Shown: positions 17,103 to 38,504 of the stretch, piece by piece | Layout of the letters: each line of letters begins with the position of its first letter | How positions within the stretch are numbered: the first letter of the stretch is position 1 | From: an uncultured Candidatus Saccharibacteria bacterium | Lineage (GTDB): Bacteria > Patescibacteriota > Minisyncoccia > JACPXH01 | DNA: 58,908 nt | Direction: 5' to 3' | Assembly (NCBI GenBank): GCA_964409225.1 | Contig: CAYPCM010000003.1 | Location: 1 to 58,908 of the forward strand | Position numbers and translations under genes: made by a program | Notes under the pieces: model-generated | Seen by the model: the letters and a program-made list of their open reading frames with translations, nothing else | Databases searched by the model: none | What the model was told of the DNA's origin: nothing

Positions 17103-18059
17103 CTATTCAAGGTACGCGGGGTAGTCCCGCAGGTGCTCGGCGAACCAATGGTAGGTCGCCTCAAGGCCTGTCTCAAACGTGATCTTGGAACGCCAGCCGA
17201 GGCGCTCGGCAGCAAGGGTTGTATCGGCTACCCAGAGCGGCGTATCCCACTTATTGGGTGGTTTGGCGCCCCACCGAAGCGGCAGAGCTTTGCCGCAGAT
17301 TCGCTCGACGATCGTCGTCACCTCGGCGAGTGAATGCTGCACGCCGGTGCCCACGTTGTAAACCGCACCCGCATGCCGAGTTGGGTCGCGCAGGCAGGCC
17401 TCGATCGCCGCGATCACATCGGGAACCGCAATGAAGTCACGTTTCGTCTCGGGATTCGAAAGATTGATGGGTGTACCGACCAACGCCGCTCGCATGAGTC
17501 GCGGGATGAGACGCCGGGGCTGCTCGAAGGGACCGTAGACCCCAAAGAACCGCAGGGTCACGAGCGGCAATCCGAAAAACCGCGCGGCGTACTGCCCATA
17601 GAGCGTTTGGGCGTGCTTAGCCACTCCGTGCGCGCTCGTTGGATTTGGCAACAAGTCCTCGCGCATGGGCACCTCTTGGAAGCCGTACTCCGAAGAACTG
17701 CCGGCATTGATGACGGCCCGTAAGTTGGGCAGACCCCGAACTGCGGCCACGAGATGAACGAGCGGCAGGATCGTATGCGTGAACACTGCGGCTTCATCCC
17801 GTTCGTCAGGGAGCGCCGCATGCGCCGCCAGATGCATAACCACAGTCGGCTGGACCCTAGCCACAACGGTACGTACCGCCGCGCCGTCAACCAGGTCAAC
17901 CGCATGGACTCTCGCGCCTGCTACACCCTTAAGGCGCCAGATGTTCTCCGGCGTACGCACGAACGCATGGACCTCGTGGTCCTCGCGGACAAAGTGCCGG
18001 ACAACATTGGCTCCGATGAAACCGTTGGCGCCGGTGACGAGTATGCGTTCGGCCACCAT
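17103..18059 (-). CDS. NAD-dependent epimerase/dehydratase (extended SDR); catalytic YxxxK reads HxxxK
   Basis: GANGFIG, GSSSEYG and SAHGVAK. Start at MVAER (18059). Confidence 0.88.
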   Translation of the reverse strand: MVAERILVTGANGFIGANVVRHFVREDHEVHAFVRTPENIWRLKGVAGARVHAVDLVDGAAVRTVVARVQPTVVMHLAAHAALPDERDEAAVFTHTILPLVHLVAAVRGLPNLRAVINAGSSSEYGFQEVPMREDLLPNPTSAHGVAKHAQTLYGQYAARFFGLPLVTLRFFGVYGPFEQPRRLIPRLMRAALVGTPINLSNPETKRDFIAVPDVIAAIEACLRDPTRHAGAVYNVGTGVQHSLAEVTTIVERICGKALPLRWGAKPPNKWDTPLWVADTTLAAERLGWRSKITFETGLEATYHWFAEHLRDYPAYLE

Positions 18060-18060
18060 G

Positions 18061-19080
18061 CTACGCCTCCAACTGGCGGTAAAACTCAACGTACCGCGCC
18101 ACGCCATCTTCGAGCGCGAACTTGGGGTTGTAGCCAAGCGTCTTTCTCGCACGGCTGATGTCGAGGGTGCCGCGCTCGGGGCGCTTGACCGGATCTTCGC
18201 CCGCGAGTTTGATCTTCAGATTGGGAAGGTGATGCCGGACTATCTCGGATAACTCCAAAAGAGTCCGACCCTGCCCCCGCGTCAAATTGAATGTACCGCC
18301 CGCGGCCGCGGGGAGAGTGGCAGCGAGATAAAACCCTTCGGCCACATCTTCAACAAAAGTGAAATCGAGCCGTGAGGTGCCAGCATTAAACAGGGTTACT
18401 TCGCGGCCTTCTAGGCCGGACTCGATCACACGCTGCACGATCCGCCGGTTGCAGTCCGTGGGCCCGTAGACCGCCGATGGTCGGATAACCACCATTTCCA
18501 ACCCGAACATCGTCTGGAAGGAACTCGCAAGAATTTCACCGGCGAGTTTGGTGGCCCCGTACGTCTCGAGAGGCCTGGTGGGATGGTCTTCGGCCGCGGG
18601 GTTGCCTGAAGTGAAATCTCCGTACGCCATGCTCGAAGAGGTGTAAACCACGCGCCTAACCGCACCGTTCAAATCTTTGGCGGCAGTCAGGATGTTTGTA
18701 GTCCCCTGCAGATTGATGGCGAACATATCCTCGATGAAGCGCTTGGAGGCATCGGCAATCGGGATCGCCGCCAGATGCACAATCACGTTGGGGCGATCCT
18801 GCTCGAGGCTGCGCCGGAGCAGCGAAACGTTGCGGATGTCACCTTCGATAACGGTGAGCGCTTCGGTGCCGAGGGGATTGTTCTCAAGCGCCTGACGGAG
18901 CCTGGCGAGTCGCAAGTTGAGAAACTGGTGGTACCGGGGATTATCCCACGGCGGCAGGAAGGATTTGAAGGCATCGTAGATAACCACCCGGTGCCCGACC
19001 GCGAGCAATTTGGCGGCCAGGTGACTCCCAATAAGCCCGGCGCCGCCGGTGATAAAGAATGTCTCGGCTTTGTCCGTCAC
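18061..19080 (-). CDS. NAD-dependent epimerase/dehydratase (extended SDR)
   Basis: GGAGLIG, TSSSMAYG and YGATK motifs. GTG start at 19080 with AAGGA SD and GTGA overlap. Confidence 0.9.
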   Translation of the reverse strand: MTDKAETFFITGGAGLIGSHLAAKLLAVGHRVVIYDAFKSFLPPWDNPRYHQFLNLRLARLRQALENNPLGTEALTVIEGDIRNVSLLRRSLEQDRPNVIVHLAAIPIADASKRFIEDMFAINLQGTTNILTAAKDLNGAVRRVVYTSSSMAYGDFTSGNPAAEDHPTRPLETYGATKLAGEILASSFQTMFGLEMVVIRPSAVYGPTDCNRRIVQRVIESGLEGREVTLFNAGTSRLDFTFVEDVAEGFYLAATLPAAAGGTFNLTRGQGRTLLELSEIVRHHLPNLKIKLAGEDPVKRPERGTLDISRARKTLGYNPKFALEDGVARYVEFYRQLEA

Positions 19081-25610: not shown

Positions 25611-26978
25611 TCAAGCAAAACGTTTGGCCACCATCCGAACAACGTGATTCCAGAAGGCCGGGTTTACCGGATAGAATTTGCCGAACCGAATCTGAAACTT
25701 CGCATGCCGCTGCCAGAAGCGCGCGGCTGCGGGAGAAAGTTCTGTATCCACTAACCCGGCATAATCCTCCACGTTATCCCAATTGACCTCGGCCTGCGGC
25801 TTAAGTTGCTTCAACCGTTCGTGCATCTCGGTGCCCAGATACGGGATCGTAAGGTTAAAGTTCATCGCGTCAATGTGGTGCTTGGCCAGAAACGCCATGG
25901 TCTCACGAATCGTCTCCTTGGTTTCACCCGGGGCATTGATGAGCGCGTACATCCCAAGTTTGATGCCGAGCGTTCGCGTAAATTCAATCGCCGTTTCCAA
26001 GTCCTGAATACGAATGGCTTTTTTAATCGAATTAAGCACCTTCTGGCTGCCGGATTCAAACCCGATATTCACCCGCACGCAGCCGGCATCCGCCATCTTC
26101 TTGATGAGATCCTTGAAGAAAAAGTCATTCGCCCGCACGTTGCAGCCCCACTTTAGTTTGATCCCCTCCCGGATGATCGTGTCGCACAGTTCGTGGACGC
26201 GGGGCTTATTGATCACAAACTCCCAGTCCTGGAAATAAACCGACTGCACGCCAAAGTTTTTCTGCAGGTACCTAATCTCATCGATCACGCTTTTGGTCGA
26301 ACGCCAAATGAATTTGTCTTTCGACATGACCTTGAGACAAAACGTGCAGTGGTACGGGCAGCCGCGACTGGTCAACATAATTGAAAAGGGTTGCGGGAGA
26401 TCGCCGAACGAGTAGCGGTACCGCTCCATGGGCAGCATGTCATAGGCAGGCAGCGGCAGCACATCGAGGTTCTCGATGCGGGGTTCATCTTCGGTGTGCA
26501 CGAACCCCTCACCATCCCGGAAAGAAATCCCCTTGACCGTCTTGGGGTCGCCGCCAGCTGACAACGTATTCACGAGGTTTTTTACGATCATCTCTGGCTC
26601 GCCCCGCACGACGTATTTCACGGCGCACTTGCGCAGCATCCATTCGGGCGTTACCGACCCGTGTGAACCGGTCAAAACCGTGTTTTCAATTCCGGCGCGG
26701 TCGATAAGCTCGTAAACCGAATCAATGTGTGAATTCGGACATTCCCAGCGGTTGACCGGCGTTGAGGTGAGCACAAAGACATCGGGCCGAAACGCCTCAA
26801 TCTCCTCGAGCGTACGGTCCACGTCATACCCCAGAATATTCGCGTCAAGCAGGCGCACCTCGTGATCATGGCGCAGCAAGGCCGCGATATACGCCATATC
26901 CAAGGGCTGGCGGTCGCGCACCGTCATGATGTTGTTTTTGCCCGCGTAGATCGCGGGGTTTAGCACAAAAATCCGCAT
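25611..26978 (-). CDS. B12-binding-domain radical SAM protein (class B methyltransferase-like)
   Basis: N-terminal cobalamin-binding-like domain; SRGCPYHCTFC (CxxxCxxC) and GFESGSQKVL motifs. Confidence 0.88.
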   Translation of the reverse strand: MRIFVLNPAIYAGKNNIMTVRDRQPLDMAYIAALLRHDHEVRLLDANILGYDVDRTLEEIEAFRPDVFVLTSTPVNRWECPNSHIDSVYELIDRAGIENTVLTGSHGSVTPEWMLRKCAVKYVVRGEPEMIVKNLVNTLSAGGDPKTVKGISFRDGEGFVHTEDEPRIENLDVLPLPAYDMLPMERYRYSFGDLPQPFSIMLTSRGCPYHCTFCLKVMSKDKFIWRSTKSVIDEIRYLQKNFGVQSVYFQDWEFVINKPRVHELCDTIIREGIKLKWGCNVRANDFFFKDLIKKMADAGCVRVNIGFESGSQKVLNSIKKAIRIQDLETAIEFTRTLGIKLGMYALINAPGETKETIRETMAFLAKHHIDAMNFNLTIPYLGTEMHERLKQLKPQAEVNWDNVEDYAGLVDTELSPAAARFWQRHAKFQIRFGKFYPVNPAFWNHVVRMVAKRFA

Positions 26979-27210: not shown

Positions 27211-28080
27211 ATGAAAATGCTCATTACCGGAGGCACCGGGCTACTTGGCTCATGCCTCAAAAAGATATTCCCCACGGACGAGGTGTCCTTTACCTACCAT
27301 TCCCATCCGGTAGCGGGAGGCCACTGGCTTGATGTTTCTGATCGATCTGCCACGCTCTCCCTCATCTCCACCATGCAACCCGATATCACGATCCATACCG
27401 TTGCCGTCCCGAGCATGGATGTATGCGAAACGAACAAGTCTCTCGCGGAGCGGGTGAATATCGAGGGTACGCGGAACGTGATCGATGCCTGCCTTCGCGT
27501 TGGGAGCAAAATCGTCTATATCTCTACCCCCTGCGTGTTTGATGGAACGAAGGCTGTATTCACGGAAGACTCCCCCACCAACCCAATAAACTACTACGGC
27601 ATCACCAAACTCGAGGGAGAGAAAATCGTTGCGCGCTCGGGTCTGCCGTTCCTCATCATGAGAACCGATCAGCCGTACGGCTGGATCGAACCGTGGCAGA
27701 AAAAAAACTCTGTGGTGAGAGCCCTGGAGGTTTTGGACAAAGACGAGGAATTCAGAGAGGTGGTTGATTGGTACAACAACCCCACCTATGGAGAAGATTT
27801 TGCCGCCGCCGCAAAACAACTCATCGAAAAGAAGCGGGAAGGCATCTTCCACGTCGTAGGTCCCGACTACCTGAATCGGTACGAGTGGGCCCTCCGGATG
27901 GCAGAGGTGTTTGGGAAAGACGCAACGCTGATCAAACCAATCAACAGTCAAATGTTGCGCCTCAACGCAAAGAGAATAAACGCGAAGCTCAACACCGATA
28001 AGCTCGCGCGAGAAGGAATCAAGATGGCCGGCGTCTGGGAAGGGCTCCGGCGAATGAAGGCCGTACGGGAACGATCGTAG
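27211..28080 (+). CDS. dTDP-4-dehydrorhamnose reductase (RmlD/RfbD)-family SDR
   Basis: GGTGLLG, YIST..VFDG, PINYYGITKL.GE and NPTY..D.A motifs. Confidence 0.88.
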   Translation: MKMLITGGTGLLGSCLKKIFPTDEVSFTYHSHPVAGGHWLDVSDRSATLSLISTMQPDITIHTVAVPSMDVCETNKSLAERVNIEGTRNVIDACLRVGSKIVYISTPCVFDGTKAVFTEDSPTNPINYYGITKLEGEKIVARSGLPFLIMRTDQPYGWIEPWQKKNSVVRALEVLDKDEEFREVVDWYNNPTYGEDFAAAAKQLIEKKREGIFHVVGPDYLNRYEWALRMAEVFGKDATLIKPINSQMLRLNAKRINAKLNTDKLAREGIKMAGVWEGLRRMKAVRERS

Positions 28081-28543: not shown

Positions 28544-29557
28544 TCAAACTAATCGCAGTTGGGAATCGACCCTCTGCTCCGCGATGGCCTTCTTGAGGAA
28601 CGCAATGTTATGGAAGACGTCTTTCTCGAAATCGCCGGGGGAATACGGAAGTGAAGTGAGGAACCCGACAATTTCCCGGATCGACTTTTCTATCGTCATC
28701 TCTGGCTGGAAAGTTCCGAGTGTTTGGATCTTTAAAAAACTAACTCGGTAGGAACGCGGATCTCGCTGGGGATCCTTGGAGAACTCAATGTGCGCTCCGA
28801 GGACCGATTCGATCTGTGTTGCAATATCGATAACCCTAACATTCCCTGCATCCCAACCCACATTAAATACCTTTCCATGCACCTTTTCAGTTGGCTCGTG
28901 TAAGAGCACGAAGAACGCTTGCGCGATATCCCGAATGTGCACGAAGGGCCTCCAGGCGGTCCCGTCCGAGAGGATTTTTACCGTTCCGAATGCAAGCGCG
29001 TGTGCCACCATGTTGTTGATCGCGAGGTCGAACCGCATCCGCGGAGAAGCCCCATGCGCGGTCCCATTCCGGAGAATAACCGGGCAGAAGCGTTCATCGA
29101 CCAGACCGAGCAAGGCCTGTTCGGCAAGCACCTTAGACTTTGCATACTCCGAAACCGGCTCGGGTGCCGATGCTTCGTCCATGAGCTCGTCGCCGCGCGA
29201 CCCGTACACCGAACAGGACGAGGAGAACAGAAACCTTCCCACCCCCGCCGCTTTCGCGAGCACGGCCAACCGCTGGGTGGCAAGGAAGTTGATCTCCTGT
29301 GTCCAAGAGGAGTTCAACTCACCGGTTGGATCGTTCGAGAGCGCGGCCAGGTGGATGAGGGCGTCATGCCCGCGCAGGTCTTCTTCGGTCACATCCCGGA
29401 TGTCTTTGTAGAGTTGCCGCGCGGGCGGTTGGCGGAGTGGCCCAACCGAAGGGTAAAACCCGGTATCAATTCCCGTTACCGTAATGCCGCGTTCCGCCAG
29501 GAACGGCGCGAGCACGCTCCCGATGTAGCCGAGGTTTCCGGTAACGACAACCCTCAT
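28544..29557 (-). CDS. NAD-dependent epimerase/dehydratase (extended SDR)
   Basis: GNLGYIG, HLAALSNDP, SSCSVYG and YAKSK motifs; ATGA overlap with rfbF. Confidence 0.9.
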   Translation of the reverse strand: MRVVVTGNLGYIGSVLAPFLAERGITVTGIDTGFYPSVGPLRQPPARQLYKDIRDVTEEDLRGHDALIHLAALSNDPTGELNSSWTQEINFLATQRLAVLAKAAGVGRFLFSSSCSVYGSRGDELMDEASAPEPVSEYAKSKVLAEQALLGLVDERFCPVILRNGTAHGASPRMRFDLAINNMVAHALAFGTVKILSDGTAWRPFVHIRDIAQAFFVLLHEPTEKVHGKVFNVGWDAGNVRVIDIATQIESVLGAHIEFSKDPQRDPRSYRVSFLKIQTLGTFQPEMTIEKSIREIVGFLTSLPYSPGDFEKDVFHNIAFLKKAIAEQRVDSQLRLV

Positions 29558-30333
29558 ACTTTCCATATTTTCCAAGGGTGGTTGCCCGAACCCCACATGG
29601 CATTCAAATCCTCATAATCCCGTAACGTGTCCATGGAATGGAAAAACCCTTCATGGGGAAACATCATCAGCTGCCTGTCCTGAGCCAGTCGTACCAACGC
29701 ATCTTCAATGGTGTCCCCGGGCTTGAGATACTGAAATATTGCTGCCTCGAACACCATGAATCCGATATTGATGTAATTCGGGAGTCTCGGCTTCTGGGCG
29801 AATGCAGTAACCACCCCTCCCCCCCCCACCTCCAAAAGCCCGTATTTGTGGTGCCCGTGCCCTCCGGTGACGGTCGCGATCTTCCCCTGTTTCAAGTGGA
29901 ATTTCAGGAGCTCCGCAATGTTAACATCGGCAAGCCCATCCGCGTACGTCGCCATGAACCGCTGCTCGCCCTTGAGAAGATTTCGTACCCGAAGCAGCCG
30001 CTCACCGGTCTCGGCCTCCAAACCCGTATCAGCAAAACTGATCGTCCAATCGTCCACGTTATCGCTATGCGTCTTGATAGCGCCGGATTTGAGACTAAAG
30101 GTATAGTCATTCAACAAGTAGCGGTAGTTCGCGAAGTAGTGCTTGACGGTCTCCCCTTTATATCCCAGGGTAAGAATGAACTCCCGCAATCCAAACTTCC
30201 CGTACATTTTCATGATGTGCCAAAGAATTGGCTTTCCGCCAATGGGAACCATGGGCTTCGCGGTGAATTCTGTCATCTCCTTCAGCCGCGTTCCTTTCCC
30301 GCCGCAGAAGATGACTACCATGATGTCTCGCAT
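29554..30333 (-). CDS. rfbF: Glucose-1-phosphate cytidylyltransferase
   Basis: CGGKGTRLKE, KPMVPIGGKPILWHIMK, DTGL...TG.RL, TYADG and FHSMDTLRD motifs. Confidence 0.85.
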   Translation of the reverse strand: MRDIMVVIFCGGKGTRLKEMTEFTAKPMVPIGGKPILWHIMKMYGKFGLREFILTLGYKGETVKHYFANYRYLLNDYTFSLKSGAIKTHSDNVDDWTISFADTGLEAETGERLLRVRNLLKGEQRFMATYADGLADVNIAELLKFHLKQGKIATVTGGHGHHKYGLLEVGGGGVVTAFAQKPRLPNYINIGFMVFEAAIFQYLKPGDTIEDALVRLAQDRQLMMFPHEGFFHSMDTLRDYEDLNAMWGSGNHPWKIWKV

Positions 30334-30399
30334 ACGCCTAACTCGACGGTAACCCAACGAACGACCGAAATCAATATGGCCAGTGCGTGCTCCGTGATT

Positions 30400-31189: not shown

Positions 31190-31651
31190 ACTGAACGCAT
31201 CCCCGCCTCGGGGAAGGTTTACGACGCGGAAGAACTCCTGAACCTGGTTGATACCTCACTCAAGTGATTCTGGACAGATGGCGAGGCGACGTCGCTCTTT
31301 GAAGCACGACTCGCCAAGTTCCTCGGGGTGCAGTACGCAGCCACCACGAACTCGGGTTCGTCCGCAAACCTTGTTGCCCTCTCCGCTTTCACTTCCCCGA
31401 TGCTCCCAGAAAAAAACGGCTACGCCCGGGAGATGAAGTAATAACAGTCGCCGCCGGGTTCCCAACCACCACCAAACAACCCTACTTTGTAAGCCATAAA
31501 TTCGCCTACCGGCTTACCTGGAACTTGGGAAACACCGACTTCATCATGCATAACGCCTTTTGGATCGGCGTGTATTCGGCCATGAAGGAACAACACATCG
31601 AAATACATCGGTTCGATATTCGACAGGTTCTTCAGAGAGAAAAAGCGGTAA
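31190..31651 (+). pseudogene. rfbH: rfbH/ddhC (CDP-4-keto-6-deoxyglucose 3-dehydrase E1) remnant with internal deletion, nonsense codon and two frameshifts
   Basis: RIPASGKVYDAEEL..LV..SL*FW...FE..LAKFLG....TNSGSSANL.AL..TSP.L...RLRPGDEVITVAAGFPTT is joined directly to KQPY.....YR....L.NTD.IM...FWIGVY......I.YI...F..FF. TGA at 31265; frameshifts at the A7 run (31410-16) and at 31601-03. Confidence 0.85.
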
Positions 31652-31814: not shown

Positions 31815-33038
31815 ATGCGTAACAGATTTCGGCCGGGCGTTGACAGGGTACTCTACACCCAAGCCGTCTACGGCAAAGAAGAAATCAATGCCGTCGTGCA
31901 GTGCCTGAAAGACGGCTGGCTTGGCCCGGGCAAGTACACCGCCGAATTCGAAGGGCGCGTGGCAAAACTCTTTGGCAAAAAGTACGGCCTCTTTGTGAAT
32001 TCTGGCTCTTCGGCCAACTACATTGCCCTGGAAATCGCCAAACTCCCCAAAGGATCAGAGATCATCGCCCAGGCCTGTACGTTCCCCACGACCTTAAACC
32101 CCATCATCCAACATGGGTACGTACCTGTATTCGTGGATTCGCGAGTTGGCAACTACAATATTGACATCCGCAAGCTTGAACGCGCCATCGGCCCCAGAAC
32201 CAAGGCCATTTTCATCTCGCACACCATCGGCAACATCAATGACATGGCGCGGATTCGGAAAATCTGCGATCAGCATAAGCTGCTTTTCATCGAAGACGCG
32301 TGCGATACCATCGCGAGTAAGTTTCGGGGCGAGCCCACCGGCCGCTGGTCGGATATCGTAACGACCAGCTTCTACGCCGCGCACAACATGACAGCGGGTG
32401 GCGGAGGTGGGATGGTCATGACCGATGATAAAGAGCTTATCCGGGAAGCCAAGATCTGCCGCGACTGGGGCCGGGCGCTCCCTGAAAACGAAGACGAAAA
32501 CATTGAGGAACGTTTCAGCTTCAAGGTGGGCGGCCGCGACTTCGACGGAAAATTCACACACGTCAAGATCGCCCACAACTTCAAACCCGTTGAGATGCAG
32601 GCCGCCTTCGGCCTGGCGCAGCTCAAAAAGCTGCCGCGCTTTAACCGCATCCGGGCACACAACTTCAAAAAACTCTACAACTTCTTCAAACGCTACGAGC
32701 ACCACTTCATCCTGCCCCAAATACACCCTGAGGCCGAAAGCTACCTCATCGCTTTCCCGCTTACGATCCGCAAAGCATCTCCCATCAAACGCAAAGACCT
32801 GCTCACGTATCTCGAAAAAAATCATATCCAGACCAGACTCCTCTTTACCGGTAACATCCTTCACCAACCGGCCTACCATAAAATCCGGCATCGCTTGGGC
32901 AGCTCGCTGAACAATGCCGACTATATCATGGACCGTTCCTTCCTCGTCGGCACACACCACGGGTTGACCGATGCGCACGTACAGTACATGATGCACACGT
33001 TTGAACGTTACCTGAATGCCCTACCCCAATCAGCATGA
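31815..33038 (+). CDS. DegT/DnrJ-fold PLP/PMP enzyme, RfbH/ColD-like 3-dehydrase (His at the Schiff-base Lys position)
   Basis: NSGSSAN, TFPTT.NP, IEDACD, SFYAAHNMT, RDWGR and TRLLFTGN motifs. Start at MRNRF (31815). Confidence 0.85.
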   Translation: MRNRFRPGVDRVLYTQAVYGKEEINAVVQCLKDGWLGPGKYTAEFEGRVAKLFGKKYGLFVNSGSSANYIALEIAKLPKGSEIIAQACTFPTTLNPIIQHGYVPVFVDSRVGNYNIDIRKLERAIGPRTKAIFISHTIGNINDMARIRKICDQHKLLFIEDACDTIASKFRGEPTGRWSDIVTTSFYAAHNMTAGGGGGMVMTDDKELIREAKICRDWGRALPENEDENIEERFSFKVGGRDFDGKFTHVKIAHNFKPVEMQAAFGLAQLKKLPRFNRIRAHNFKKLYNFFKRYEHHFILPQIHPEAESYLIAFPLTIRKASPIKRKDLLTYLEKNHIQTRLLFTGNILHQPAYHKIRHRLGSSLNNADYIMDRSFLVGTHHGLTDAHVQYMMHTFERYLNALPQSA

Positions 33039-34864
33039 AGCTGACTGACTACCTCGCCCAATTCCTCACGGCACAAAAGATCAAACACGTATTCCTCGTC
33101 ACCGGCGGGGCCTGCGCTCATATTATTGACTCGCTCGGAAAACACCCACGCATCGGGTACGTCTGCACCCAGCACGAGCAGGCTGCCGCAATGGCCGCCG
33201 AGGCCTACAGCCGCGTCACTAAAAACCTCGGGGCGGCGGTCGCCACTTCTGGCCCCGGGGCGACAAACCTGATAACCGGCATCTGCTGCGCGTGGTTTGA
33301 TTCGATCCCGACACTCTTCATCACCGGCCAAGTCAATACCCATGAAACCAAGGGGAAGCGCAAAATCCGGCAGCTGGGCTTCCAAGAAACCGACATCGTG
33401 GACATTGTGCGTCCCATCACCAAGTTCGCCCAGCTCATCACCGATCCAAGCCAGATTAGGTACGTCCTGGAGAAAGCCGTATATCTCGCGCGCTCTGGCC
33501 GGCCGGGCCCGGTACTCATCGACATCCCCCTGAACGTACAGCACGCAGAGATCAATCCCGCGAAACTCAAACGGTTCAGTCCCCGCGAGATCGAACAACC
33601 CAGAAACGTGCGCCGCCTGCGCGTCCAAGCGGCTAAAGCCATCCAACTGCTCGGGAAGGCATCTCGACCGATTATCTTGGCGGGCGGGGGCATCAAACTC
33701 GGCCGGGCCGAAGGGCTCTTCCGGAACCTGATTGACAAGATCAAAATCCCGGTGGTCGCCTCTTGGAGCGGTATTGACGTCCTAGCGCACACGCATCCCG
33801 CCTACGTGGGGCAGATTGGCGTCTACGGCGGGCGAGCGGCAAACTTTGCCATTCAAAATTCGGATCTACTCCTCGCCATCGGCTCGCGTCTGGACACCCG
33901 CCAGACCGGCGGCCAGCCCCAAACCTTTGCCCGAGAAGCGACTAAAGTCGTCGTGGACATTGATCGGGCAGAACTGACCAAAAACTGGGTGAAACCCGAC
34001 CTCGCCATCGAGGCCGACGCCAATGATTTCATTGCCGAATTGCTCCGTGAGCTACCCCGGTTGAAGCGCCCCGACATCACCCCGTGGGTGAAGCGCTGCC
34101 GCACCTGGAAGCAACGGTACCCGGCGGTGCTGCCCGCGTGGCACCAGCAGCAAGGCTCGGTCAACTCGTACGTGTTCATAAAGACCCTCGCGGAAGAGCT
34201 CAAATCTTCGGACGTCATCATCACTGACATTGGCGGAGTTTCAACCTGGACGCTCCAGGCCTTTACCGTCAAGCCCAAGCAGATGCTATTTTCGGCCATG
34301 GGCCACGGCCCCATGGGCTATGCGTTGCCAGCCTCGATCGGGGCGTGGTTCGCGGCGCCGCGCCGGCGCATCGTCTGCATTGCCGGCGACGGCGGATTCC
34401 AGTTGAATCTCCAGGAACTTCAGACGGTCGCGAAATACCGAGTGCCGGTGAAAATATTCATCCTTAACAACGCGAGTTACGGCATCATTAAACAATTCCA
34501 AGAGACCTACTTTGGGGGTCGCTACGAAGCCACCTCGAAACGGTACGGCTATAGCTGTCCGGATTTTGTGAAAGTGGCGAAGGCCTATGGGCTTACGTCT
34601 GAACGGATCCGGAACCACGACGAAATGCGAACAAAAATCAGCAGGGTGTTACACGCCAAGGGGCCGGCGCTGTGCGATGTACAGATTGCCCAAGACCAGA
34701 AACTAATCCCGAAACTCATCGCCCACCGCACCAAAGACGGCCGCTACATCTCGAAACCCATTGAAGACCAGACCCCATTTCTTCCACGCAAAGAATTCCT
34801 TGCCAACATGATCGTTAAACCGGTCGATGAAACACCCGCGCCCAAGGCCTCCGAAATCCACTAA
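33035..34864 (+). CDS. ThDP-dependent enzyme, acetolactate synthase/YerE-like
   Basis: HEQAAAMAAE, TSGPGATN and GDGGFQ.N.QE...NN motifs; ATGA-coupled to the upstream gene. Confidence 0.9.
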   Translation: MKLTDYLAQFLTAQKIKHVFLVTGGACAHIIDSLGKHPRIGYVCTQHEQAAAMAAEAYSRVTKNLGAAVATSGPGATNLITGICCAWFDSIPTLFITGQVNTHETKGKRKIRQLGFQETDIVDIVRPITKFAQLITDPSQIRYVLEKAVYLARSGRPGPVLIDIPLNVQHAEINPAKLKRFSPREIEQPRNVRRLRVQAAKAIQLLGKASRPIILAGGGIKLGRAEGLFRNLIDKIKIPVVASWSGIDVLAHTHPAYVGQIGVYGGRAANFAIQNSDLLLAIGSRLDTRQTGGQPQTFAREATKVVVDIDRAELTKNWVKPDLAIEADANDFIAELLRELPRLKRPDITPWVKRCRTWKQRYPAVLPAWHQQQGSVNSYVFIKTLAEELKSSDVIITDIGGVSTWTLQAFTVKPKQMLFSAMGHGPMGYALPASIGAWFAAPRRRIVCIAGDGGFQLNLQELQTVAKYRVPVKIFILNNASYGIIKQFQETYFGGRYEATSKRYGYSCPDFVKVAKAYGLTSERIRNHDEMRTKISRVLHAKGPALCDVQIAQDQKLIPKLIAHRTKDGRYISKPIEDQTPFLPRKEFLANMIVKPVDETPAPKASEIH

Positions 34865-35825
34865 CCCCGATACCGATCGGGTGCTGATAACGGGTGCGAC
34901 GGGGTTTGTCGGCGCAAACCTGGCCCGCGCGCTCGTTCAACAGGGCCGGCAGGTCGCCGTCATCACGAGGCAAAACTCTAATCCTTGGCGGCTCGCCGAG
35001 GTGCAGGGTTCGCTCGAACAGCACGTGGCCGACCTCGCCGACGCGCCCGCGCTTCGGCAGATCGTCCAGAAGGTTCAACCCACCGTCATCTTTCATGCGG
35101 CGGCGGCTTCGGTCTACGGCGATCAAGTGCCTGCCACTGAATCGGAGATGGTCCGGAGTAATCTCATCGGCACCATGAACCTCATCCGCGCGTGCGCCGA
35201 CATCAACTACCGCTGTTTTGTGAACACCGGCAGCTCCTCGGAGTACGGTCCGAAAACCGAACCGATGGTCGAAACCGATCTAGCCGCACCCCGCGACATC
35301 TACGGCGTTACCAAGTGCGCGGCCACCCACTTCGCCGCGGCCGTCGCACGCCAAGAGCACAAACCCATTTTGACTCTTCGACTCTTCTCGCCATTCGGCC
35401 CCTATGACGACCCCCGGCGGCTGATTCCAACCGCTATAGTAGCCGCGCTCACAAGCCGCGATATCAAACTTGCGCGTCCGGAGATTGGCCGCGATTACGT
35501 TTTCATTGATGACGTGGTGGCCGCATATTTGGCTGCGGTCGAGCGCGCCCGGGAAAACGAAGGGGAAATTATTAACATCGGCTCTGGCCGGCAGACGACA
35601 CTCGAAGAAACCGTCGCCACCCTCTTCACGCTCGTGAAGTCGCCCGGCCGGGCGCTGTGGGGCGCGGCCCCGGGCTCGCCCCAGGATAACCCCCTCTGGC
35701 AGGCCGATATAGAGAAAGCCCGCGAGCGCCTGGGTTGGCAACCCCGGGTGGCGTTCCGGGAGGGCTTGCGCCAGACAGTAGAGTGGTTTCGCGAACACCT
35801 CGATCGCTACGCTTTTTCGCCATGA
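34827..35825 (+). CDS. NAD-dependent epimerase/reductase (extended SDR)
   Basis: GATGFVG, GSSSEYG and YGVTK motifs. Alternative GTG start at 34881. Confidence 0.9.
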   Translation: MKHPRPRPPKSTNPDTDRVLITGATGFVGANLARALVQQGRQVAVITRQNSNPWRLAEVQGSLEQHVADLADAPALRQIVQKVQPTVIFHAAAASVYGDQVPATESEMVRSNLIGTMNLIRACADINYRCFVNTGSSSEYGPKTEPMVETDLAAPRDIYGVTKCAATHFAAAVARQEHKPILTLRLFSPFGPYDDPRRLIPTAIVAALTSRDIKLARPEIGRDYVFIDDVVAAYLAAVERARENEGEIINIGSGRQTTLEETVATLFTLVKSPGRALWGAAPGSPQDNPLWQADIEKARERLGWQPRVAFREGLRQTVEWFREHLDRYAFSP

Positions 35826-36637
35826 CTCCCGCCCGGCTCAAAACACTTGAGCACCACGCTCGAAACATCCGACGGCAAACCCTCACCATGACGAGCCGGG
35901 TCAAGGCGGCGCACACGGGCGGGTCGCTGTCGGTAGCTGATATCCTGACGGTACTCTACTTTCAGATCCTCCGCCTGAATCCGAAACGGCCGCACGACCC
36001 AAGCCGCGACCGGCTGCTCTTCAGCAAGGGGCACGCCGCCGCAGCGCTCTACGCCACACTTGCCGAGCGCGGCTTTTTCTCGCCAAAAATGCTCGATGGT
36101 TTCTACCGCAACGGCACGCTGCTCACCGGGCACCCCACGCGTAACTGTCTCCCCGGGGTCGAAGTCACTTCTGGTTCGCTCGGACACGGTTTGGCTATGG
36201 GTGCGGGGCTGGCCTGGGCCGCGAAACTCGACCGTAAGCCCTACCGCACCTTCGCCATCTTGAGCGACGGGGAATGTGACGAGGGTTCAGTGTGGGAGGC
36301 GATACTCGCTGCCGGCCATCGCCGACTCGATAACCTCATCGCCATTATCGACTACAACAAGCTCCAGAGCTTCGGCACCACCAAAGAAGTGCTGGATTTG
36401 GAACCGTTCAAAGCGAAATGGGCTGCTTTTCGATGGACAGTGCGCGAGGTTGACGGACACGACCTGACCGCGCTTACTACGCTCTTGAGTCGCGTTCCAT
36501 TCCGGAAAGGCAGACCGAGTGCGATCATCGCGCATACGATCAAGGGCAAGGGAGTGTCATTTTATGAAAACACCCTCAAATCCCACTACCAGCCGCTCGA
36601 CGAGCAGCAACTCGCCGACGTACTCGCCACCCTATGA
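35822..36637 (+). CDS. Transketolase-like N-terminal subunit (second copy, glycan locus)
   Basis: HTGGSLS, SKGHA, GHP, GSLGHGL, SDGECDEG and HTIKGKG motifs; ATGA overlap fixes the start at 35822. Confidence 0.9.
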   Translation: MTPARLKTLEHHARNIRRQTLTMTSRVKAAHTGGSLSVADILTVLYFQILRLNPKRPHDPSRDRLLFSKGHAAAALYATLAERGFFSPKMLDGFYRNGTLLTGHPTRNCLPGVEVTSGSLGHGLAMGAGLAWAAKLDRKPYRTFAILSDGECDEGSVWEAILAAGHRRLDNLIAIIDYNKLQSFGTTKEVLDLEPFKAKWAAFRWTVREVDGHDLTALTTLLSRVPFRKGRPSAIIAHTIKGKGVSFYENTLKSHYQPLDEQQLADVLATL

Positions 36638-37560
36638 GACCTGCATTCGTTCGCGCCCTCACTGCTGCCGCTGCCAAAGACCGACGGATCGTGCTGCTCA
36701 CTGGCGACCTTGGCTATAACGCCCTCGAACCTTTCAAGGATAGGTTCCCGGACAGATTCCTCAACATGGGCTTGTCTGAACAGAACATGGTGGGGTTTGC
36801 GGCCGGGCTCGCGCTCGCCGGCAAAATCCCCGTCGTCTACTCCATCGCGACCTTCATGACGCTCAAAACCGTGGAGCAGCTGCGCAACGACGTTTGCTAC
36901 CAAGGACTCAATGTGAAAGTTGTGGGGGTTGGCGCGGGGCTCACCTATTCGCAGTACGGCGCGACCCACCACGCGACTGAAGACATTGCGCTGATGCGAC
37001 TCTTACCCTCCATGAAAGTTATCTGCCCGGGCGATCCTGTTGAGGTGACTGGGGCAACACATGCCCTGCTCAAGGATCCCGCACCCTGCTATTTGCGCAT
37101 TGGCGCACGGGGCGAACCCAACATCCACCCGAAATCCATTTCGTTCCGGATCGGCCGAGGGTACCTGGTGCGGCCGGGCAAAGATGCGGTGCTCATCGCA
37201 ACCGGCAATATGCTGGCCAACACCGTTGCGGCGGCTCAGATCCTGGCTAAACGCGCCGCCCACATGACGGTAGTCAGCATGCCAACGGTTAAACCCCTCG
37301 ACGAAGCACTCCTGCGCAAGCTTGGCCGCACCTTCCGCCATCTCTTTACCGTTGAAGAACACACGACCATCGGCGGATTCGGCAGCGCGGTGGCCGACTT
37401 TCTCGCGGACGAACATGAACAACCACGCCTGCACCGCATCGCGCTCGCAGACGAATTCCAGAAGACCACGGGCTGGCTCGATTGGCTACGAGCACAAAAC
37501 GGCCTCTCACCAGAAGGCATAGCCAAAACGGTATTGAGGACGCTCAAGAAACGCTCATGA
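36634..37560 (+). CDS. Transketolase-like C-terminal subunit (second copy)
   Basis: LTGDLG, GLSEQNM, GATHH and TVEEH motifs. Confidence 0.9.
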   Translation: MRPAFVRALTAAAAKDRRIVLLTGDLGYNALEPFKDRFPDRFLNMGLSEQNMVGFAAGLALAGKIPVVYSIATFMTLKTVEQLRNDVCYQGLNVKVVGVGAGLTYSQYGATHHATEDIALMRLLPSMKVICPGDPVEVTGATHALLKDPAPCYLRIGARGEPNIHPKSISFRIGRGYLVRPGKDAVLIATGNMLANTVAAAQILAKRAAHMTVVSMPTVKPLDEALLRKLGRTFRHLFTVEEHTTIGGFGSAVADFLADEHEQPRLHRIALADEFQKTTGWLDWLRAQNGLSPEGIAKTVLRTLKKRS

Positions 37561-38504
37561 TGACCGCGAAGAAAATTTCCGCCATCATTGCCTGCTACAA
37601 GGACGAACCGGCAATTCCGATCATGTACGAGCGGCTCACGCGGACCTTCCAGAAGATCGGCCCGAATTACGAGATCGTCTTCGTCAACGATGGCAGCCCG
37701 GACAACTCGGAAGCGGTACTCGCCGAATTAGCGGCTCAAGATCAACACGTGGTGGTAATCAACCACTCTCGTAATTTCAGCACCCAGAACGTTCATTTGA
37801 GCGGCATGGAAATCGCAACCGGCGATGCGGTGGTGCTACTCGACGGCGACTTGCAAGATCCGCCCGAACTCATTGAACAGTTCGCCGAGAAGTGGCTCGA
37901 GGGCTATGACGTGGTTTACGGCATCCGGGTCAAACGCGAGGCCCCGGGCTGGATGCAAATTGCCTATAAGCTTTTCTACCGAATTTTCCAGAAACTCGCG
38001 TACGTGAAGATCCCCCTTGATGCCGGCGATTTTTCGCTTCTGGACCGCAAAGTGGTACGCGTCTTAAACCAAATGCCAGAGGTAGATCGTTTCACCCGCG
38101 GCATGCGCGCTTGGGTAGGATTTCGTCAAACCGGCGTCCCCTACGTACGGCCCGAGCGAATGTTCGGCCGCTCCACCAATAATCTCTGGCGGAACATCCG
38201 GTGGGCGAAAAAGGGCATATTTTCCTTCTCGTACGCACCGCTTGAGTGGGTTTCGTTCATTGCGGGGGTCGTAACGGTGCTCGCCGCCCTCGCCATTGTG
38301 GTTTATATAGTCCTCGCCATCATATGGCCTGCCCCGCGCGGGTTCCTGTCAATACTCATGGCCATTCTCTTTTTCGGAGCAGTGCAGCTTTTGGCGCTTT
38401 CGGTCATCGGTGAATACATTGCCAAAATCTTCGAAGAGGTCAAACGCCGTCCAAAGTTCATTGTAAAAAGCATATTCAATGATCCTCGACAGAAGACGCC
38501 CTGA
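37557..38504 (+). CDS. GT2 polyprenol-phosphate glycosyltransferase (GtrB type), paralogue of 15160-16098
   Basis: VNDGSPD, SRNF, LDGDLQDPPE and RAWVGFRQTGVPYVR motifs; two C-terminal TMs; ATGA overlap start. Confidence 0.9.
   Translation: MMTAKKISAIIACYKDEPAIPIMYERLTRTFQKIGPNYEIVFVNDGSPDNSEAVLAELAAQDQHVVVINHSRNFSTQNVHLSGMEIATGDAVVLLDGDLQDPPELIEQFAEKWLEGYDVVYGIRVKREAPGWMQIAYKLFYRIFQKLAYVKIPLDAGDFSLLDRKVVRVLNQMPEVDRFTRGMRAWVGFRQTGVPYVRPERMFGRSTNNLWRNIRWAKKGIFSFSYAPLEWVSFIAGVVTVLAALAIVVYIVLAIIWPAPRGFLSILMAILFFGAVQLLALSVIGEYIAKIFEEVKRRPKFIVKSIFNDPRQKTP

Follow-up and report, generated by a model that had tools for sequence, protein, structure and literature searches.

A candidate nucleotide-sugar C-3 dehydratase of the E1 lineage without the [2Fe-2S] site in a glycan locus of a CPR bacterium

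Introduction

A gene in a large glycan locus of a Candidatus Saccharibacteria bacterium encodes a protein, here called P0001, that keeps the scaffold of the sugar dehydrase E1 and has lost most of its iron-sulfur site. From its sequence and gene context we predict that P0001 belongs to the E1 lineage and acts as a functional nucleotide-sugar C-3 dehydratase without a [2Fe-2S] cluster, with a ColD-like turnover driven by L-glutamate. We give this reading a probability of about 0.55.

E1 is the textbook PMP enzyme that needs an Fe-S cluster and a reductase for the radical deoxygenation at C-3. ColD is the cluster-free alternative. Interconversion of the two mechanisms has reportedly been addressed by Liu through retro-evolution mutagenesis of E1.

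We analysed a stretch of 58,908 nucleotides (the window), which constitutes the glycan locus. The host genome has 883 kb, a size typical of CPR bacteria, and is 98% complete.

Results

The dehydratase gene and the lost cluster site

The features of the gene are the following.

31815..33038, plus strand: gene of P0001 (407 aa), a Cys-less E1/RfbH-like protein of the PMP/PLP-dependent sugar 3-dehydratase type (Pfam, NCBIfam, AlphaFold2 model and PDB match)
32292..32306, plus strand: EDACD, residues 160-164, aligned to EDCCD of E1
32367..32393, plus strand: SFYAAHNMT motif, residues 185-193 (alignment with Yersinia E1)
32460..32516, plus strand: loop RDWGRALPENEDENIEERF, residues 216-234, in place of the E1 Fe-S loop RDWGRDCxCxxxxxxxC (alignment with E1)

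The reading frame is intact; it opens with the ATG at 31815 and closes with the TGA at 33036-33038. A longer frame would open with a TTG at 31560; the homologues start at the ATG at 31815 instead. P0001 scores 282 bits with the Pfam family DegT_DnrJ_EryC1. With the NCBIfam equivalog for RfbH (NF011936) it reaches 403.4 bits, under the cut-off of 423, and canonical E1 sequences obtain 580-754 bits. Among solved structures, the sequence search places Yersinia E1 first (3bcx and 3bb8; E ~1e-85) and ColD after it (3e-49). The AlphaFold2 model (pLDDT 92) gives the same order in the structural ranking, with E1 3bcx at the top (TM 0.91, 36% identity), followed by ColD (TM 0.85, 29% identity).

The first-pass annotation had pointed out three departures from ordinary aminotransferases and from E1, and the alignments bear them out. 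First, the histidine of SFYAAHNMT was said to occupy the Schiff-base lysine position. It is His190 (codon 32382-32384), and it aligns to H220 of E1, the residue changed to lysine in the H220K mutant 3bb8. Second, the cysteine loop of E1 was said to be replaced. The stretch RDWGRALPENEDENIEERF aligns there and is free of cysteine; its E1 counterpart holds three of the four [2Fe-2S] cysteines. Third, EDCCD of E1 reads EDACD in P0001, as the alignment with 3bcx confirms. By alignment offset, Cys163 of P0001 corresponds to C193 of E1 and is the sole ligand position retained. In terms of the E1 ligand motif C-X57-C-X1-C-X7-C, the first cysteine is present and the three of the loop are missing. We take these three to be C251, C253 and C261 in the published numbering, which agrees with the alignment of P0001 and E1. 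The sequence comparison supports P0001 as an E1-type scaffold that would be unable to bind the [2Fe-2S] cluster of E1.

Conservation across the Cys-less clade

We aligned 207 members of the Cys-less clade with five canonical E1 and eight ColD-like sequences. The three columns of the loop ligands have 0% cysteine among the 207 members, and therefore the loss is not a sequencing error or the mark of a pseudogene. The position of His190 is invariant in the 207 Cys-less, five canonical and eight ColD-like sequences, and none has lysine there. Asp164 and Tyr187 are likewise invariant in the Cys-less clade. They are the same residues as in E1, whereas ColD has Glu and Phe.

Other cysteines could have taken over as ligands. 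A column-by-column scan of the 207 members yielded no conserved set of substitutes, so the cluster loss stands. With three of four ligands gone and no conserved replacement, the earlier proposal of an E1-like scaffold without an Fe-S site is upheld. The only conserved cysteine of the clade is Cys163. It is also invariant in the ColD-like sequences sampled, a family without an Fe-S cluster (PMC8987622), and for this reason its presence does not point to a cluster. The median number of cysteines is 4 in the Cys-less clade and 10 in canonical E1.

P0001 had been presented as a singular oddity, and this did not last. It belongs to a conserved clade of very large size, of which we examined the 207 members. 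The best 120 database relatives of P0001 (50-86% identity) all have the histidine and all lack the loop cysteines. The same holds for 80 species-level loci from GTDB genomes, with the histidine in every one and the E1 loop-cysteine triad in 0/80. Their hosts include many CPR lineages, Micrarchaeota, Woesearchaeota, Nanoarchaeota, Halorhabdus salina, a Gemmatimonadota MAG and Proteobacteria. The range of the clade thus comprises CPR bacteria, DPANN archaea, one haloarchaeon and Proteobacteria. About 60 positions are invariant across phyla, the cofactor-binding and catalytic residues among them. Such a robust clade, conserved across phyla, must be under selection.

The loop that replaces the Fe-S loop differs among subclades. 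It is acidic in P0001 and basic or neutral elsewhere, and because of this variation it offers no conserved docking surface. In a separate observation, raw residue frequencies at Pro188, Phe312 and other positions differ with cluster loss. For Pro188, the only position submitted to an independent-pairs test, the pairs were too few for significance, and we did not retain it as co-varying with cluster loss.

Phylogeny and number of cluster losses

Two trees were built. The first combined the Cys-less proteins with canonical E1 and ColD-like genes sampled from Gammaproteobacteria. In it, the Cys-less proteins make up a single clade (SH-aLRT 99) next to that of canonical E1 (100), and the ColD-like sequences fall outside. 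The second tree was broader and drew on a set of cluster representatives (50% identity, 1.8 billion proteins) in which 1,096 have E <= 1e-30; neither tree contains SpnQ-type sequences. There, P0001 falls within an all-Cys-less clade of 37 representatives (SH-aLRT 99), and lineages of the Fe-S type are interleaved with Cys-less ones. The single Cys-less clade sister to E1 was therefore abandoned. In neither tree is P0001 placed inside the ColD-like clade.

Loop cysteines are missing from about half of the sampled E1-family representatives. Constraining all Fe-S rows together cost 120 log-likelihood units, with p-AU 0.0499 for a group that was named after the tree had been seen. Since the AU value is borderline and the group was defined post hoc, multiple losses are not proven. 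The interleaving suggests that the cluster site of the E1 family may have been lost repeatedly.

A decayed rfbH upstream

Directly upstream of the dehydratase lies a broken gene of the canonical type.

31190..31651, plus strand: remnant of a decayed canonical-type rfbH (matches to Cys-bearing E1 sequences)

The remnant covers residues ~27-118 and ~375-416 of canonical E1 (L094 numbering). Its first piece (residues ~27-98) carries an in-frame TGA at 31265. A frameshift follows near 31400-31411, and then GDEVITVAAGFPTT is fused straight to the C-terminal piece (residues ~375-416). About 256 central codons are deleted, and the histidine and the Fe-S loop region were among them. The three pieces show 54%, 82% and 43% identity to Cys-bearing E1, versus 37-47% to the Cys-less clade; Cys-bearing sequences are the best match of all three. 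The genome of the same genus has no such remnant. This single case is consistent with the replacement of an iron-dependent rfbH by a cluster-free gene.

The locus and its ThDP enzymes

The genes around the dehydratase are listed below.

27211..28080, plus strand: RmlD-like 4-ketoreductase (domain searches)
28544..29596, minus strand: GalE-like extended SDR, in the same orientation as the RfbF-like gene (domain searches)
29554..30357, minus strand: glucose-1-phosphate cytidylyltransferase-like (RfbF-like) gene (TIGR02623, 259.5 bits, cut-off 300)
33035..34864, plus strand: YerE/JanthE-like ThDP carboligase, 609 aa (best solved relative JanthE, 8rph)
34827..35825, plus strand: extended SDR with GSSSEYG ... 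YGVTK, a candidate 4,6-dehydratase or branch or 4-keto reductase (profile search)
35735..37560, plus strand: split transketolase, N subunit 35735-36637 and C subunit 36634-37560 (domain searches)
37482..38504, plus strand: GT2 polyprenyl-phosphate glycosyltransferase, PgfS/ArnC-like (domain searches)

On the plus strand the order is dehydratase, ThDP enzyme of the ALS family, extended SDR, split transketolase and PgfS/ArnC-like GT2. The minus strand upstream of the dehydratase carries a GT2, the RfbF-like gene and the GalE-like SDR. The stop of the dehydratase overlaps the start of the ThDP gene (ATGA at 33035-33038), an arrangement of translational coupling.

Against solved chains, the ThDP enzyme scores 415 bits with JanthE 8rph, 365 with 5ahk, which we take to be PpYerE, and 295 with the first named true acetolactate synthase large subunit. 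JanthE (8rph) has been identified as a YerE-like enzyme (PMC12188165, PMC12247030). Enzymes of this type accept ketones and put acyl branches on their natural acceptor, CDP-4-keto-3,6-dideoxyglucose (PMC9306805). For split transketolases, a proposed role is the attachment of hydroxyacetyl branches to keto sugars (PMC12247030).

A clear CDP-glucose 4,6-dehydratase (RfbG) was not found in the genome with TIGR02622. The best match is the SDR at 34827..35825, yet it reaches only 91 bits. For lack of such an enzyme, the substrate of P0001 is not secure.

Related loci and gene fusions

The coupling to ThDP enzymes recurs in related loci. Within 10 kb, a YerE-like enzyme is present in 21 of the 80 loci and a split transketolase in 21 of the 80, with either or both in 39/80. 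About half of the related loci have no ThDP enzyme at this distance. When only loci of at least 15 kb are counted, a YerE-like enzyme or a split transketolase appears in 28/46. The first close relative has the order dehydratase, TK-N, TK-C, SDR, TK-N, TK-C, GT2, and the second has dehydratase, YerE-like enzyme, GT2, SDR. In the window and in these two closest relatives, the next gene after the dehydratase thus belongs to a ThDP enzyme.

The gammaproteobacterial loci can be compared with canonical ones. An RfbF-like gene occurs in 8/10 Cys-less loci and a YerE-like gene in 5/10; among five canonical E1 loci, RfbF is present in 5/5 and a YerE-like gene in 1/5.

Natural fusions are found as well. 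Cys-less members are joined to RmlC, RmlD, RmlC+RmlD or 4,6-dehydratase-like SDR domains, and canonical E1 sequences to RmlD-like or SDR domains. Among ten fused proteins scanned per group (Cys-less and canonical), none was fused to E3.

The reductase partner

It had been noted that the window has no E3, and this holds and extends to the whole genome. A six-frame search with PF00175 (NAD_binding_1), our proxy for the E3/FNR family, gave no match in the 883 kb. Likewise, no Old Yellow Enzyme (PF00724) was matched in the genome.

E3 was also considered as a discriminator between canonical and Cys-less enzymes and was discarded. In genomes of the same CPR class, PF00175 is mixed in both sets, present in 3/5 with canonical E1 and 2/5 with Cys-less enzymes. 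Moreover, E3 is adjacent in 0/5 gammaproteobacterial canonical loci. Because genomes with canonical E1 (2/5 in CPR) also have no gene of the FNR family, the absence of E3 is a weak argument. As weak evidence, the absence of E3/FNR fits a reductase-free mechanism.

Discussion

Proposed function and mechanism

Two routes are described, and both begin with a PMP-dependent elimination of the 3-OH. The intermediate is then either reduced through the enzyme's own cluster (E1, SpnQ) or hydrolysed to PLP and an enamine, with L-glutamate restoring PMP (ColD, Campylobacter) (PMC8987622). ColD and the Campylobacter C3-dehydratases are of the His type and finish the reaction with PLP and L-glutamate alone (PMC8987622). 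P0001 has neither a cluster nor a conserved docking loop, and its genome gave no match to an E3-type reductase; for these reasons the ColD-like route is the most economical. Chemistry of this kind, driven by PLP and L-glutamate, is our best inference for the enzyme. One published result counts against it, namely that E1 showed no transaminase activity under conditions where SpnQ did (PMC8987622). P0001 itself has an E1-type active-site signature and lies outside the ColD clade (29% identity), which are also observations against a ColD-like reading.

The RfbF-like gene, the ThDP coupling, the fusions and the decayed rfbH point to a true C-3 dehydratase, with a CDP-4-keto-6-deoxyhexose as the probable substrate. 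We infer this substrate, a turnover driven by glutamate and the later use of the product as follows. The nearby RfbF-like enzyme would make a CDP-hexose, and a putative SDR 4,6-dehydratase would convert it to the CDP-4-keto-6-deoxyhexose. On P0001, PMP would form a ketimine at C4. His190 would take the C4' proton and the 3-OH would be expelled. With neither a cluster nor an E3-type reductase available for its re-reduction, the PMP-glucoseen adduct would be hydrolysed as in ColD, giving PLP and a sugar enamine. The enamine would then yield the 3,6-dideoxy-4-keto sugar and ammonia, and L-glutamate would regenerate PMP. The 4-keto product may pass to the coupled YerE-like ThDP enzyme, to the split transketolase or to both, for branching at C-4. 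Finally, the branched sugar would be reduced, the GT2 would load it onto polyprenyl phosphate, and it would end up as a decoration of the cell surface.

Alternative readings

P0001 might carry out only the dehydration half-reaction. A partner would complete or divert the reaction to another product, either an SDR with hydride from NAD(P)H or a ThDP enzyme by interception. This idea agrees with the close linkage, repeated across loci, to ThDP enzymes and to an SDR whose SSSE motif is dehydratase-like. Against it, the genome has no Old Yellow Enzyme. In addition, the fusions to RmlC or RmlD alone and the loci without a ThDP enzyme imply that a normal 4-keto product is released unaided. We know of no precedent for a partner enzyme that intercepts such a dehydratase intermediate, and we hold this possibility to be unlikely.

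An ordinary aminotransferase role is also unlikely, judging from the sequences. The reasons are the invariant histidine, the absence of lysine, the retention of Asp164 and Tyr187, the ketoreductase and epimerase fusions and the ThDP coupling. A related reading is a 4-aminotransferase in disguise, with PLP/glutamate transamination at C-4 as the main reaction and a 4-amino-4,6-dideoxy sugar as product. Sugar aminotransferases share the DegT fold, and SpnQ transaminates in vitro when the reductase is absent (PMC8987622). Nevertheless, no member of the clade has lysine in place of the histidine. Nor is any N-acyltransferase or N-methyltransferase of amino-sugar tailoring coupled to the gene. The ketone-accepting ThDP coupling and the fusions to RmlD and RmlC demand a 4-keto and not a 4-amino product. 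From the fusions it follows that the DegT domain must release a 4-keto sugar, as a true 3-dehydratase does and a 4-aminotransferase does not. On this balance, transamination as the main reaction is quite improbable.

It is somewhat more doubtful still that P0001 is reductive, with an external ferredoxin, flavodoxin or small donor docking at the lost-cluster site and feeding the PMP-glucoseen. SpnQ does use general ferredoxin or flavodoxin reductase pairs and not a dedicated E3 (PMC8987622), and the active-site residues of P0001 are E1-like rather than ColD-like. However, both reductase-dependent enzymes, E1 and SpnQ, have their own cluster as a relay (PMC8987622). The replacement loop, variable between subclades, leaves a donor no conserved surface to dock on, and a reductase of the FNR family is absent from the genome.

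Lastly, an inactive relic or non-catalytic scaffold would account for the loss of a cofactor site deemed essential in E1, but it is hardly credible for an intact, translationally coupled frame that keeps its cofactor-binding and catalytic residues among ~60 positions invariant across phyla, beside a true relic, the rfbH remnant, that is visibly broken.

Novelty and meaning

The preferred reading remains that P0001 has an E1 scaffold and, most probably, the mode of action of ColD. It has neither the Fe-S motif nor the equivalog score that mark E1, and it is not a member of the ColD family. A 2022 review of sugar dehydratases gives only the E1, ColD and SpnQ types (PMC8987622). Our full-text literature search, with key subscription papers outside its reach, turned up no account of an E1-type clade without a cluster.

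We also put forward a wider and more tentative proposal, which we consider possible and somewhat less probable than its opposite. The E1 family may have lost its [2Fe-2S] cluster several times independently. The largest of these lineages, that of P0001, would then stand as a third mechanistic class among sugar C-3 deoxygenases, with an E1-type site that finishes the reaction without cluster or reductase. In CPR and DPANN organisms, it might have specialised in feeding the ThDP-dependent C-branching of surface sugars. The decayed rfbH might be a snapshot of the replacement of an iron-dependent enzyme by an iron-free one.

The cluster-free half of the sampled E1-family diversity is a natural experiment on the interconversion of the two mechanisms. 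If our reading is true, the annotation of thousands of proteins labelled 'E1' or 'aminotransferase' would need correction. It would also provide a route to CDP-3,6-dideoxy-4-keto sugars that requires neither iron nor a reductase, for chemoenzymatic use with YerE-type carboligases. Furthermore, it would indicate branched deoxysugars on the cell surfaces of CPR and DPANN organisms.

Comparison with known systems

The closest known enzyme is E1 (AscC/DdhC/RfbH of Yersinia and Salmonella; CDP-6-deoxy-L-threo-D-glycero-4-hexulose 3-dehydrase). P0001 shares with it the fold, the histidine, and the Asp and Tyr near the cofactor. The surroundings are also similar, with an RfbF-like neighbour, RmlD-like or SDR fusion partners and a probable downstream use of the YerE type, as in the yersiniose pathway. 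The difference is that E1 has the three [2Fe-2S] ligands missing in P0001, and P0001 belongs to a separate, well-supported clade.

ColD (GDP-4-keto-6-deoxy-D-mannose 3-dehydratase of E. coli O55, 2gms) and the C3-dehydratases of Campylobacter jejuni HS:5/HS:11 are, like P0001, His-type DegT proteins without Fe-S or reductase. They represent the only demonstrated Fe-S-free deoxygenation at C-3, which uses PLP and L-glutamate and releases 2-oxoglutarate and ammonia. However, Asp164, Tyr187 and Phe90 of P0001, which E1 shares, are replaced by Glu, Phe and Trp in ColD, and ColD forms a clade with an HGW motif that P0001 does not join. The context of ColD is GDP-mannose, whereas that of P0001 is probably CDP-hexose.

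SpnQ (TDP-4-keto-2,6-dideoxyglucose 3-dehydrase of the spinosyn forosamine pathway) is also of the His type, has no dedicated E3 gene and transaminates with PLP and glutamate. Unlike P0001, it carries the [2Fe-2S] motif, needs ferredoxin/flavodoxin reductase pairs for deoxygenation and belongs to the secondary metabolism of actinomycetes.

At the pathway level, yersiniose A, erwiniose and caryophyllose are made by E1/E3, then YerE, ErwE or MMAR_2332, and then a reductase. The operon of P0001 follows the same logic, with a 3-dehydratase, an ALS-family ThDP carboligase and an SDR, and an RfbF-like gene nearby. It differs from the yersiniose type in its cluster-free dehydratase, in the split transketolase as a second ThDP system, in the probable loading of polyprenyl phosphate by a GT2 and in its CPR host.

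Substitutions and insertions in the dehydratase family

The 407-aa Cys-less dehydratase P0001 and its subclade present changes immediately after the catalytic histidine (His190).

32382-32417, Gly-rich segment of P0001 (residues 190-201), read as 'HNMTAGGGGGM' in its subclade

At this site, the canonical, Cys-bearing E1 sequences sampled have 'H-x-x-T-x-GEGG'. The P0001 subclade has lost the conserved glutamate and gained one extra glycine.

Other homologues carry long insertions. Nine homologues (P0164, P0179, P0209, P0222, P0229, P0235, P0253, P0258, and P0260) reach about 730-830 aa. In them, 'WGR(D/E/S)C' runs on into 'F(P/T/L)(A/E)(G/N)(T/A)…' or a comparable sequence, and several hundred additional residues come after it. 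From its sequence, this insertion looks like a putative intein placed exactly at the first Fe-S ligand cysteine of E1-type enzymes. The Cys-less member P0124 has a Hint/intein, confirmed with Pfam, at a different site from that of the nine.

Gene remnants and paralogues in the window

31190-31651, forward strand, rfbH pseudogene of the canonical (Cys-type) kind, a remnant with N- and C-terminal parts fused

17103-18152, reverse strand, extended SDR, paralogue of the operon SDR, with 'AHGVAKH' at the expected catalytic YxxxK position

The rfbH remnant lacks about 256 central codons, and its reading frame is interrupted by a TGA at 31265 and by a single frameshift. The intact Cys-less gene lies immediately 3' of it. 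In the SDR, histidine replaces the tyrosine of the expected motif, and YxxxK is absent from the entire protein.

Comparison with related loci

L122:1417-5885, operon of the closest relative, whose dehydratase is 86% identical to P0001

This operon contains two tandem split-transketolase pairs with an SDR between them, and no ALS-family enzyme.

Against the same-genus genome (L006/L147), the B12-radical-SAM gene (25611-26978) shows 92% identity and the Cys-less dehydratase (31815-33038) only 62%. Within 10 kb at L006, matches to the YerE-like enzyme, the transketolase, and the GT2 are all absent. Judged by sequence comparison, the glycan locus is a mosaic, resembling O-antigen clusters.
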